From a virus (taxonomy: Duplodnaviria > Caudoviricetes), in IMG/VR virus record IMGVR_UViG_3300032116_022045: a stretch of DNA of 64,000 nt. One strand, given 5' to 3'. Numbering within the stretch: the stretch's first letter is position 1; each line of letters starts with the position of its first letter. The position numbers and the translations under genes are program-made. A model generated the notes under the pieces. That model was not told the DNA's origin. It worked only from the letters and a program-made list of their open reading frames with translations, and made no database searches. Positions 57,299-59,961 of the stretch are shown here, piece by piece.

Positions 57299-57319
57299 TT
57301 AATTTAATTATATTACCTT

Positions 57320-57658
57320 TTATTTATTGGTATTATGTTTTATAATTAATTCACCAAGAACCTCTAAACGACCAACCTCACGCTGAAAGTCAGTTTGACT
57401 CATATCAAAACCTATTTTATCATAAGTCTCCTTAAACTCTTTCTTAGCCTTATCGATATCAAATTTACCTTCAGAAGCTTTCTTATAATATGGTAACTTA
57501 ACCTTGAAATGATGCCATGTTAATAATGAATAACCACCCTTCTCCTTCGCTGTGTTTGCTATCTTCTCAGCACCACCCTCCCTAGTATTAGCAAAATCCT
57601 TAAATGACTCGCTATCATCAAATGTCTCCCTTAATATTTTTTTTATGTCTATTGTCAT
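57320..57658 (-). CDS. hypothetical late protein
   Basis: MTIDIKKILRE; late motif at 57663. Confidence 0.65.
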   Translation of the reverse strand: MTIDIKKILRETFDDSESFKDFANTREGGAEKIANTAKEKGGYSLLTWHHFKVKLPYYKKASEGKFDIDKAKKEFKETYDKIGFDMSQTDFQREVGRLEVLGELIIKHNTNK

Positions 57659-57738
57659 ATATATAAATATTGGGTTTAATACAAAAAAATAGTATCTTTG
57701 AAATTCAAATAAATATTTATCTAATATACTTTATACAT

Positions 57739-57981
57739 ATGAGAAAAAATACCTTAATACATGGTAAACAAAAAATAAATTATAAAAGAACTAAAGATGA
57801 CTATGGTGATGATATATTATTGGTAAATCACTATACTAAAAAATATATATTAGATAATAATATAGAAGGTTTAACTGAAATTAATTTCACACACCCAGAT
57901 AAAAATGTTGACCCAGATGAATATAATTGGGTTCTATCAATAAAAATAGATAAAGTAGTAGAAAAATTAAAAAATATTTGA
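57739..57981 (+). CDS. hypothetical protein (start likely ATG 57739)
   Basis: Late motif upstream at about 57713. Confidence 0.55.
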   Translation: MRKNTLIHGKQKINYKRTKDDYGDDILLVNHYTKKYILDNNIEGLTEINFTHPDKNVDPDEYNWVLSIKIDKVVEKLKNI

Positions 57982-58008
57982 CTTCTTATAATAAACTTAG
58001 TATATTTG
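57977..58008 (+). promoter_or_regulatory. Bacteroidota-type sigma70 promoter for tRNA-Pro
   Basis: TTTG-N20-TATATTTG, 6 nt before the tRNA. Confidence 0.8.
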
Positions 58009-58014
58009 TATTAT

Positions 58015-58087
58015 AAGGTAGTAGTTCAGTTGGTAGAATGCTAGTTTTGGGAACTAGTGGTCGCAAGTTCGAGCCTTGCTTACCTTA
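58015..58087 (+). tRNA. tRNA-Pro(TGG)
   Basis: AAGGTAG/TTACCTT acceptor; CTAGT-TTTGGGA-ACTAG; GCAAG-TTCGAGC-CTTGC; no encoded CCA. Confidence 0.9.
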
Positions 58088-58208
58088 CTTTTGAATTAAA
58101 AAATGGATTCAGCAAATTTTAAAAAATTACATTGGACGTAAAAAAAACCATTTTGTTTCAAAAAAAAAAAAATAACTTTTTAATAAAGATAACATATTTA
58201 TTTGTAAA

Positions 58209-58292
58209 ATGAAAAACTATTCTAACATATTTGACTTCGCATTTTTTGCTGGTGAGGAAGATTTAAACCTCATAATGGTCAAGTTTTGTTAA
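58209..58292 (+). CDS. 27-aa Phe-rich leader peptide (putative)
   Basis: MKNYSNIFDFAFFAGEEDLNLIMVKFC overlaps the antiterminator strand. Confidence 0.55.
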   Translation: MKNYSNIFDFAFFAGEEDLNLIMVKFC

Positions 58293-58349
58293 TTTTTATT
58301 AAATAATCATATAAAAAACCTTGACCATTAAAAAGTCAAGGTTTTTTTA
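58273..58349 (+). promoter_or_regulatory. attenuator-like antiterminator/terminator
   Basis: TAATGGTCAAG (58273-83) pairs with CTTGACCATTA (58320-30); the alternative is AAAAAACCTTGAC/GTCAAGGTTTTTT plus a T-tract. Confidence 0.7.
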
Positions 58350-58352
58350 TTT

Positions 58353-58425
58353 GGTATGATAGCTCCAATGGTAGAGCGCAAGTTTGAAGAACTTGGCGTT
58401 GGTGGTTCGAATCCACCTCATACCA
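58353..58425 (+). tRNA. tRNA-Phe(GAA)
   Basis: GGTATGA/TCATACC; CAAGT-TTGAAGA-ACTTG; GGTGG-TTCGAAT-CCACC. Confidence 0.92.
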
Positions 58426-58430
58426 CAAAA

Positions 58431-58502
58431 GGACTCATGGTCTAAAGGTTATGATACTTGACTGTCTATCAAGTGATTGGGGTTCGATTCCCCATGGGTT
58501 CG
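58431..58502 (+). tRNA. tRNA-Asp(GTC)
   Basis: CTTGA-CTGTCTA-TCAAG; TGGGG-TTCGATT-CCCCA; G73. Confidence 0.9.
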
Positions 58503-58520
58503 CAAAAAAAAAAATAATAT

Positions 58521-58593
58521 CGCACATTCGTCTAGTGGACTAGGACATCTCCCTTTCACGGAGAAGACACGGTTTCGAATACCGTATGTGTGA
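58521..58593 (+). tRNA. tRNA-Glu(TTC)
   Basis: TCTCC-CTTTCAC-GGAGA; ACGGT-TTCGAAT-ACCGT. Confidence 0.9.
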
Positions 58594-58598
58594 CAAAT

Positions 58599-58672
58599 GG
58601 GGGCACATGTTCCAAGGCTGGCGAAAATGATTTGCAATCAATTTGTGAAGAGTTCAATTCTCTTTGTCTCCA
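58599..58672 (+). tRNA. tRNA-Ala(TGC)
   Basis: GGGGGCA/TGTCTCC acceptor with G3:U70 and A73; loop TTTGCAA. Confidence 0.8.
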
Positions 58673-58677
58673 CTTTT

Positions 58678-58710
58678 TTTGTTTAGTTGTTTTATTTTAT
58701 AGTATATTTG
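58678..58710 (+). promoter_or_regulatory. Bacteroidota-type sigma70 promoter
   Basis: TTTG-N21-TATATTTG. Confidence 0.75.
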
Positions 58711-58736
58711 TAATATAATTAAAACAGAATGTTAAT

Positions 58737-59399
58737 ATGGGATATAGAACATATATAGCGTCAATGCCGAAAAGAGAATATAATAAAATAAAATCAATGT
58801 CTGAAGAAGAATTGATTGAATTTTATAATATAGAAAAAGAAGAAAATGGTTTTTGGTATAAAGGTGTATATGAATTTGGTGAAGAACTTTATGAATTTGG
58901 TAAATTTACTGATTTTAATATACCAAAAAAATTTATTAAACCTTTTTTTAAAAATGAAAAGTTAATGTTAAAATATAACGAGTATGACTTTTTTACAATT
59001 AAAAAAGAAGTTCTTGAATTGATAATAAACCATTATCAAGAAAAAATAAAAAAATATTATAATGAAATGGTTAACCCAATTTTTGGCCTAGATAATTCTG
59101 GTAACCAAATAGAATCAAATTTATTAGATTCAATTAAAATTAAATATACTCACCCAGATAATGATTATCTGTTTGATTTATCAAACATAACCCAAAAAAA
59201 ACAAAATGCTTTATATAATATGATTAACCATGTTAAACGTATGCAAATAGAATGGGTAGATTTAACACCGTTTGATTTAAATGATGGTAAACAAATAATC
59301 ACAAATTCTTGGAAATATGAATATGGTATATTTGAACTAGTTAGAATATACAAATCTTTTGATTGGAAAAAAAATTTAATGTTCTACTATGGATACTAA
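58737..59399 (+). CDS. hypothetical protein
   Basis: 220-aa ORF after a host-type promoter. Confidence 0.7.
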   Translation: MGYRTYIASMPKREYNKIKSMSEEELIEFYNIEKEENGFWYKGVYEFGEELYEFGKFTDFNIPKKFIKPFFKNEKLMLKYNEYDFFTIKKEVLELIINHYQEKIKKYYNEMVNPIFGLDNSGNQIESNLLDSIKIKYTHPDNDYLFDLSNITQKKQNALYNMINHVKRMQIEWVDLTPFDLNDGKQIITNSWKYEYGIFELVRIYKSFDWKKNLMFYYGY

Positions 59400-59457
59400 T
59401 ATATAACTTATTTAATCAATAAAACTATATATTTATATATGAAATCTTAATTTAATT

Positions 59458-59961
59458 ATGAATAAACAAATAATATTAGAAACCATTCGTAAAGAATTTT
59501 TAATTAAAGAAAATTCAAAATACGATAACTATAAAAAAAATTGGAACTACGCTGGAAATTCTTATACTGACTTAACTATCGAAGAACCACTGAAAATTAA
59601 AACATGGACCTTCCCAAATCAAAATGGCTTCTATTTAGAATTTTTTTTTAATAATACCTTAATAGGTCATTATCACTCATTTTATGACCAAGATGATGGT
59701 TTTATGAATGATATGGAAATAAAAGATGATTACCAAAATAAAGGTTTCGGCAAAATATTACTTTTGTCAGCAATAGATGTTGGTAATAATTATATGGGCT
59801 TCTTCTCATCTGATACTAGATGGTTAGCACCAAATCAATCTAAAATCTATATCTACCTAAAAAAAGAAAATATAATATCTGATAATGACGAAATTATTGA
59901 TTATGATAAAGCTAATAAACTAATCTCAATAATAACTGAAAAAAACTTGACTTCTAAATAA
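59458..59961 (+). CDS. GNAT-like protein with head-targeting-like N-terminus
   Basis: MEIKDDYQNKGFGKILL motif A; late motif at 59429. Confidence 0.6.
   Translation: MNKQIILETIRKEFLIKENSKYDNYKKNWNYAGNSYTDLTIEEPLKIKTWTFPNQNGFYLEFFFNNTLIGHYHSFYDQDDGFMNDMEIKDDYQNKGFGKILLLSAIDVGNNYMGFFSSDTRWLAPNQSKIYIYLKKENIISDNDEIIDYDKANKLISIITEKNLTSK

Follow-up and report, generated by a model that had tools for sequence, protein, structure and literature searches.

A leader frame spelled for the tRNA genes behind it: a probable attenuator of a phage tRNA operon

What is a short open reading frame (ORF) crowded with phenylalanine codons, and closed by a hairpin with a run of T, doing directly in front of a phage gene for tRNA-Phe? 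The ORF lies at 58209-58292 of a 64,000-nucleotide (nt) stretch of the Caudoviricetes record IMGVR_UViG_3300032116_022045 in IMG/VR; this whole stretch, AT-rich and phage-like at about 25-26% G+C, is called the window below. An earlier note, made from the letters of the window alone, had taken the arrangement for an attenuator that senses a shortage of charged host tRNA-Phe. The observation is real and far beyond chance: the leader is spelled in the amino acids of the four tRNAs encoded behind it, the design recurs in 27 distinct versions, and other leaders in related phages are spelled for other tRNA blocks. From these comparisons of sequence we consider it likely that the element is a multivalent, ribosome-mediated transcription attenuator that stands before a tRNA operon of this giant phage from lake water and senses tRNA supply. 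Its parts in the window are the following.

58209..58292, + strand: leader ORF MKNYSNIFDFAFFAGEEDLNLIMVKFC, 27 codons, ATG at 58209 and TAA at 58290-58292
58230..58262, + strand: control codons FDFAFFAGEED (TTT GAC TTC GCA TTT TTT GCT GGT GAG GAA GAT)
58229..58236, + strand: region 1, ATTTGACT, predicted partner of region 2 without a ribosome, from minimum free energy (MFE) folds
58273..58287, + strand: region 2, TAATGGTCAAGTTTT, 5' strand of the predicted antiterminator, ending 3 nt before the stop codon
58296..58306, + strand: small apical hairpin of the antiterminator (58296-58299 with 58303-58306), right behind the stop codon
58315..58330, + strand: region 3, 3' strand of the predicted antiterminator, shared with the terminator 5' arm and the first five loop bases
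58313..58352, + strand: predicted intrinsic terminator, arms 58313-58325 and 58335-58347, 13 base pairs (bp), 9-nt loop, tail TTTTTTTATTT
58353..58426, + strand: tRNA-Phe(GAA), first gene of the putatively controlled block (ARAGORN and Rfam)
58431..58503, + strand: tRNA-Asp(GTC) (ARAGORN and Rfam)
58521..58594, + strand: tRNA-Glu(TTC) (ARAGORN and Rfam)
58601..58672, + strand: tRNA-Ala(TGC), atypical (Rfam 29.4 bits, gathering score 29; missed by ARAGORN)

Leader codons and the tRNAs behind them

The 27-codon ORF and the four Phe in six codons that the earlier note had singled out (58230-58247, F D F A F F) are as described, and the match had been undercounted: 10 of the 11 codons of FDFAFFAGEED encode Phe, Asp, Ala or Glu, exactly the four tRNAs that follow. 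The control region uses both codons each of Phe, Asp and Glu and two Ala codons. When the window and 116 related loci were read in six frames, 11-residue windows with at least 10 residues from {F,D,E,A} occurred at 2.7e-5 per position. The 5' flank of the ORF is A-rich and lacks a Shine-Dalgarno sequence; the leader is presumably translated, and the conservation of its frame is described below.

Searches of GenBank phages gave no relatives of the leader: blastn of 57300-59500 matched the tRNAs alone, and tblastn of a 29-aa leader had no match. An exact 45-mer of tRNA-Phe was not found in IMG/VR, nor a leader 21-mer in genome_contigs. Near-identical copies are present in many lake metagenomes, including L001 and L002, and contigs of four lake DNA runs have zero differences within the leader; being near-identical, such copies are uninformative on selection. 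The public runs listed as containing them include none of RNA. A synteny search by way of the 220-aa protein encoded downstream fetched about 120 loci. Hundreds of homologues of this protein occur in large viral contigs, the tRNA block is not syntenic with them, and L119 alone, the near-identical L001 and L002 aside, keeps the block beside the protein gene. In L119 the neighbouring protein is 74% identical to that of the window and the layout is the same (tRNA-Pro, 27-codon ORF, hairpin, Phe, Asp, Glu, Ala). Its leader, MKTYLNIFDFAFFANEDDSSIIMVKFC, keeps frame, start and stop; the four differences from the window within FDFAFFA are all synonymous (GAC/GAT, TTC/TTT, GCA/GCC, GCT/GCG), and a later change replaces Glu with Asp, which is still in the cognate set.

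Further members were collected with a degenerate DNA pattern for IFDFAFFA, which had 29 matches in 2.9 million viral contigs of IMG/VR: 20 are a 29-codon ORF followed by tRNA-Phe, and nine lie in unrelated contexts without a tRNA. Two relaxed patterns added FERAFFAAE, FDNAFFAAE, FDFAFEFAAE and FDFAAFAFFAEED, and the Phe class now stands at 34 loci, all in uncultured viral contigs, with 27 distinct versions. The ORF has 27-32 codons in every version (27/27), and indels inside it are in frame. Nucleotide entropy at codon positions 1/2/3 is 0.10/0.21/0.76 in the core, where the low values at positions 1 and 2 are biased because the search patterns fixed part of it, and 1.04/1.11/1.16 in the ORF tail. 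With variation at third positions in the core and at all three positions in the tail, the core evolves like codons and the tail like RNA. Evidence free of the search bias comes from the third-position variation, the comparison of the window with L119 and the other leader classes.

tRNA-Phe is the first gene of the array behind all 27 Phe-class leaders, and where enough downstream sequence exists in most of them Glu, Asp and Ala genes come next, frequently duplicated; upstream of the leaders lie arrays of Leu, Val, Cys or Pro. To the loci collected around the leader we also applied a scan that uses no motif (an ORF of 12-45 codons, then a hairpin with a T-run at a distance of 8-50 nt, then a tRNA no more than 700 nt away), and it returned three kinds of element only, which we call FDAE, LVC and TYKQPG. 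Leaders rich in Leu, Val and Cys, for example MRTTSVILVLLLCLLVVDRVGYAC, stand ahead of Cys, Val and several Leu tRNAs (L132:5673, L144 on the - strand, L168:8035, L146:10726, L125:5510 and others). Leaders of the TYKQPG class (MKTTTTYKTQYQPKGGKPQRKTG..., MKTTTTYKTQYQPKGGKPQ...) stand ahead of Pro, Gln, Tyr, Thr, Gly and Lys tRNAs (L123:7097, L124:10670, and L163 on the - strand, oriented 4898). On long contigs the LVC leader and the Cys-Val-Leu block come first, then the FDAE leader with the Phe-Glu-Asp-Ala block and, farther on, the TYKQPG leader with its own block. Both additional classes share the terminator/antiterminator design and mostly have a TAnnTTTG promoter box of their own; in the TYKQPG class the distance from region 2 to the stop codon is 23-32 nt, a geometry unlike that of the Phe class.

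Measured by its best 11-residue window, each leader scores 9-11 for its own tRNA set and 0-5 for either of the other sets; in control DNA read in six frames, windows that reach 10 or more have a frequency of 2-6e-5 per position. Applied as a control to loci fetched only via the neighbouring protein, the motif-free scan gave two further likely classes: NIIEKIK... at L040:1836, ahead of Glu, Ile, Phe and Lys tRNAs, and VIIKHIKHVIAK at L087:3763, ahead of Lys, Lys, Ile, Val and Ile tRNAs. A match at L077 in this control scan was set aside as a probable false positive. The leaders before other phage tRNAs, to which the earlier note had pointed as a check, thus use codons for the amino acids that the tRNAs behind them carry. 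A correlation between leader codons and cognate tRNAs in homologues, whose absence that note had listed among its refuting conditions, is found, and reading frame, terminator and antiterminator are kept with covariation.

The match extends to isoacceptors. By eye, the Leu codons of the L132 leader include TTA, CTT, TTG and CTA, and the Leu anticodons of its array are taa, aag, caa and tag. This codon choice bears on what an attenuator of this kind would report. Leader attenuators of the classical type, such as those of trp and his, respond to charged tRNA and depend on amino acid as well as tRNA, so that the leaders considered here might report amino-acid starvation, or the general state of host translation, and time tRNA synthesis to a phase of infection. 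We regard this as quite improbable: the product of the operon is tRNA, the feedback could close only if tRNA is limiting, and leaders that sample the codons of single isoacceptors fit the sensing of tRNA species and not of amino acids.

Terminator and antiterminator

Compared with 200 shuffles, the segment 58200-58352 folds unusually stably (z = -3.7), and the energy of the terminator is -14.3 kcal/mol. A simple terminator scan of 57300-59000 listed none; it missed this hairpin because its rule permits loops of 3-8 nt and the loop here has 9. The earlier note had the terminator end 3 nt before tRNA-Phe, which is approximately right: the T7 run (58342-58348) is followed by ATTT and, after these 4 nt, by the tRNA at 58353, so that the T-rich tail abuts the gene. 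A hairpin with a T-run (at least 5 T) lies 26-31 nt behind the stop codon in all 27 versions, the run stands directly behind the stem and has 5-10 T across family members, and in the family consensus the stems covary, with compensatory changes in 7 of 9 stem pairs. Transcription would be expected to terminate at this hairpin.

The perfect 11-nt pairing claimed for the end of the leader is there: TAATGGTCAAG (58273-58283) is the exact reverse complement of CTTGACCATTA (58320-58330), a segment made up of the 3' half of the terminator 5' arm and five loop bases. The antiterminator of the window (58270-58334, -14.4 kcal/mol) is iso-energetic with the terminator and mutually exclusive with it. The spacing that the note had judged fitting for attenuation bears inspection as well, since 3 nt separate the end of region 2 from the TAA at 58290. 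When the leader region of the window was folded with a ribosome footprint masked, its size assumed at the usual value, a footprint on the Phe codons gave the antiterminator and one on the stop codon left the terminator only; a ribosome of usual footprint halted at the stop codon would cover region 2.

The ribosome-free fold contains helix 1:2, in which the Ile-Phe-Asp-Phe codons pair with GGTCAA near the 3' end of the ORF, together with the terminator. With the first 18 codons masked and the terminator 3' arm absent, a long antiterminator forms whose outer helix, GGTCA with TGACC, reaches into the terminator loop. Relatives with 29 codons have a second antiterminator helix (TTGTCA with TGATAA), and in them the apical hairpin contains the stop codon. 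Both strands of the outer helix change together between phages: AGGTCA/TGACCT in L124 and L131, TGGTCGG/CCGACCA in L125, TGGTCGA/TCGACCA in L136, AGGGTCG/TGACCCT in L137, and TAATGGTCAAG/CTTGACCATTA in the window.

The specificity of this pairing was examined across the collection. Within the Phe class the 3' part of a leader pairs better with its own terminator 5' arm and loop than with those of other members (p about 0.001), and over 36 distinct elements of the three classes none of 20000 permutations reached the observed stability of the cognate duplexes. On a MAFFT alignment, which was fitted to no structure, 66% of the antiterminator cells are paired, versus 27-41% for slid partners, and the covariation score lies above all 500 shuffles. 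RNAalifold recovered almost no structure from MAFFT alignments, whether these spanned the whole leader or the part from region 2 to the loop, since the terminators are misaligned in them; the duplex permutations, which need no alignment, and a named structure were used in its place. Helix 1:2 appears in the MFE folds of nearly all members, with 87% of cells pairing versus 34-67% for slid partners.

These results settle whether the leader might be a Phe-rich ORF that arose by chance in an AT-rich spacer beside an ordinary terminator. TTT is indeed common at about 25-26% G+C, and the earlier note had itself allowed for a chance match. This is not borne out: a family of 27 distinct versions whose codons vary synonymously and whose indels stay in frame, together with covariation and parallel classes, leaves chance a practically negligible probability.

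Transcription into the tRNA block

Whether the leader could govern the tRNAs depends on how polymerase reaches them. Three features upstream of the leader bear on this.

57978..58008, + strand: promoter-like site TTGACT-17-TATATT (10/12 match), candidate for tRNA-Pro, the leader and the tRNA block
58001-58008, + strand: Bacteroidota-type -7 box TATATTTG, overlapped by the TTGACT-17-TATATT site (57978-58006)
58015..58088, + strand: tRNA-Pro(TGG) (Rfam 63.8 bits), 5' of the attenuator

No further promoter-like site was found from 57978-58008 to tRNA-Phe, and the leader of the window has no promoter box of its own. TTGACT within the ORF (58231-58236) was rejected as a -35 box, as no -10 or -7 box lies behind it; a promoter between terminator and tRNA-Phe was rejected in the window, where 4 nt are available, and so was the TAnnTTTG-like word TTTATTTG (58346-58353), which has a mismatch and whose start would fall inside the tRNA. 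By sequence and position, the site at 57978..58008 is the most likely promoter of tRNA-Pro, the leader and the tRNA block, and the leader probably shares this promoter before tRNA-Pro, from which it is separated by a spacer of 120 nt. tRNA-Pro, upstream of the attenuator, lies outside its control; it would be constitutive and the four later tRNAs conditional. In 15 of the 27 versions (the window and 14 others) the T-run and tRNA-Phe are at most 16 nt apart; this leaves no room for a promoter, so that in these versions the tRNAs would be made only by read-through.

We propose the following scheme for this read-through. Transcription most likely starts before tRNA-Pro and would continue across the 27-codon leader. 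If the leader carried no ribosome, region 1 would pair with region 2 and the terminator would form. Smooth translation to the stop codon at 58290 would cover region 2, the terminator would again form, and polymerase would halt before tRNA-Phe. If aminoacyl-tRNAs were short, the ribosome would slow on the Phe, Asp, Ala and Glu codons (58230-58262) and occupy region 1, leaving region 2 free; region 2 would then pair with region 3 before region 4 is made, no terminator would form, and polymerase would read into tRNA-Phe, Asp, Glu and Ala. The new tRNAs would relieve the stall and close the gate, a demand-driven negative feedback on tRNA supply. Since the products are the very tRNAs that the leader tests, the circuit would amount to negative feedback on decoding capacity. 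We infer that ribosome and polymerase would be coupled here and that the output would respond to tRNA supply.

This scheme departs from the Phe sensor proposed earlier. The Phe codons in the leader stand; the restriction to Phe does not, since the putative sensor is multivalent (Phe, Asp, Ala, Glu). Read-through only when charged tRNA is scarce, as the note supposed, would be in keeping with the scheme, and host anticodon nucleases, which it named as an example of a trigger, are possible. A mismatch with host codon usage, or plain autoregulation of tRNA dosage, fits equally well. Tentatively, and with considerable doubt, we also put forward that the system is an inducible tRNA replacement doubling as counter-defence, in which blocks sense their own missing host tRNAs and resupply just those. 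The tRNA genes would be split into blocks, each switched on when ribosomes slow on its own codons, and host tRNAs would be lost through codon-usage mismatch, host shut-off or anticodon-nuclease cleavage.

Several observations weigh against an attenuator of tRNA supply. Extra tRNA would be useless if the amino acid itself were limiting. A TAnnTTTG box stands between terminator and tRNA-Phe in 8 of the 27 versions, within a spacer of 69-126 nt and, in six of these 8, 12 nt before the tRNA; in four of the 27 an ORF of 67-170 codons is inserted at this place (L122/L126, L128, L134, L165/L167). In those phages attenuation would be supplemented or bypassed. In L119 two uncompensated loop changes leave a contiguous antiterminator helix of 8 bp in place of 11, and for helix 1:2 covariation across the family does not rise above shuffles. 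The search bias described above belongs here too, as does the core NIFDFAFFA, which is more constant than a pure codon-set sensor requires; this constancy may come from 1:2 pairing or from an effect of the nascent peptide.

Two other explanations draw on these same observations. The ORF might encode a small functional peptide with its own terminator that lies beside tRNA-Phe by gene order, the tRNAs being expressed independently. The promoter-like boxes in 8 of 27 relatives and the strongly conserved peptide core would suit such a peptide, and we nevertheless hold it to be highly improbable: the window and 14 other versions have no room for a promoter, the ORF tail evolves like RNA and pairs cognate-specifically with the terminator, and up to five classes of unrelated peptides that match their own downstream tRNAs would be left unexplained.

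Alternatively, with leader and RNA switch unchanged, the output might lie elsewhere than in transcription termination: in the processing or stability of a tRNA precursor, if the hairpin were opened or closed to RNase P, RNase E or RNase III, for example, or in arrest of the ribosome by the nascent peptide. The constancy of NIFDFAFFA speaks for this reading, and so does a hairpin that ends only 4 nt from the mature 5' end of tRNA-Phe. This proximity is not conserved, since the hairpin lies up to 893 nt from tRNA-Phe in relatives; the 5-10 T directly behind the stem in every member are a hallmark of intrinsic termination, and the LVC and TYKQPG classes share the architecture and no peptide motif with the Phe class. 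On balance processing or arrest appears unlikely, and an attenuator that senses tRNA supply is the reading we retain.

Some further features of these loci may be recorded. In the window, tRNA-Ala(TGC) is odd in its D region and carries G3:U70 and, in the anticodon stem, an A-A mismatch; compared by eye, both the acceptor stem and the T stem of its counterpart in L119 show compensatory changes, which makes tRNA-Ala probably functional. The 12-mer ATATTTGACTTC occurs twice, at 57974-57985 in the -35 region of the tRNA-Pro promoter and at 58227-58238 in the Ile-Phe-Asp-Phe codons and region 1. Two homopolymer runs vary in length: the A run at 58167-58179 is A13 in the window and A11 in L001 and has one extra A in a lake run, and that at 58504-58514 has one A fewer in L001, L002 and two lake runs. 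A second TATATTTG box, at 58703-58710, lies ahead of the next gene. The 220-aa protein 3' of the tRNA block (58737-59399) belongs to no Pfam family. Its 394 homologues come from large contigs of uncultured viruses, the longest reaching 630 kb; the N-terminus MGYR.Y is invariant, and the C-terminus reads FELVRIYK..FDW.

Among the relatives, the insert of L122 resembles an HNH homing endonuclease by motifs read by eye. A tRNA with anticodon TCA (called SeC by ARAGORN) lies between the Phe and Glu genes in L131, L142, L149 and L144 and may be an opal suppressor or a reader of TGA as sense; L087 also has a tRNA with anticodon CTA, called Pyl by ARAGORN. A small hairpin 15-25 nt before the leader ATG is present in L122, L123, L132, L134, L136, L146 and L168 and absent from the window leader. 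It varies on both sides between phages (GGGGTAACCC, GGATGAAAATCC, GGAACACGAAGTTCC, GGGTTAAAACCC), and in L132 the same one precedes two leader classes.

Relation to known attenuators

The purpose of phage tRNA genes and the time of their use are under debate, with codon-usage matching, substitution for degraded host tRNAs and evasion of tRNA-cleaving defences among the proposals, and to our knowledge the regulation of phage tRNA genes has been described only for promoters and processing. In the present phages tRNAs are apparently made on demand: the ribosome would serve as the sensor, and the leader peptide would test decoding capacity codon by codon. If so, tRNA genes would here be seen under attenuation control for the first time, as far as we can find, and the leaders would show directly which decoding shortages these phages expect. 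The constant grouping and order of tRNA genes within the arrays would also be accounted for, and natural elements as compact as about 140 nt would be at hand for reporting how well chosen tRNAs are supplied. A full-text literature search found the classical attenuators and nothing on attenuation of tRNA genes or phage tRNA clusters.

The nearest counterparts are in E. coli, where pheL precedes pheA and pheM precedes pheST. pheL is a short leader ORF with clustered Phe codons (PMC3082878), and the kinetics of attenuation have been treated (PMC1183508). The element of the window resembles pheL and pheM in its Phe-codon leader ORF, its intrinsic terminator, an antiterminator that overlaps the terminator 5' arm, and a stop codon placed so that a terminating ribosome would block the antiterminator and a stall would give read-through. 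It differs in what it would control: four tRNAs, not genes of amino-acid biosynthesis or an aminoacyl-tRNA synthetase as with the usual leader-peptide attenuators, among them pheL and pheM, which control a biosynthetic enzyme and a synthetase. Its leader also mixes four amino acids and has no sequence similarity to either, and the element is phage-borne, with Bacteroidota-like promoters.

Several amino acids are sampled by one leader in enterobacteria too, in ilvL before ilvGMEDA (Ile, Leu, Val) and in thrL (Thr, Ile), where each sampled amino acid adds read-through. The set of ilvL or thrL is that of a shared biosynthetic pathway, whereas the set in the window is the tRNA list of the operon; leaders of relatives mirror even isoacceptor anticodons, and related phages hold up to five codon-matched sets.

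With T-boxes the element would share the sensing of a specific tRNA supply and a terminator/antiterminator switch upstream of translation-related genes. T-boxes bind uncharged tRNA directly, without a leader peptide, and control synthetase, biosynthesis and transporter genes; cmscan of 57600-59000 to E = 1 returned the tRNAs and chance-level small RNA matches only, with no T-box (RF00230) or other Rfam regulatory RNA. The proposed mechanism is a known one, leader-peptide attenuation, and what is new, as far as can be told, is its tRNA-gene product, its codon-matched multivalent leaders and its setting in phages.

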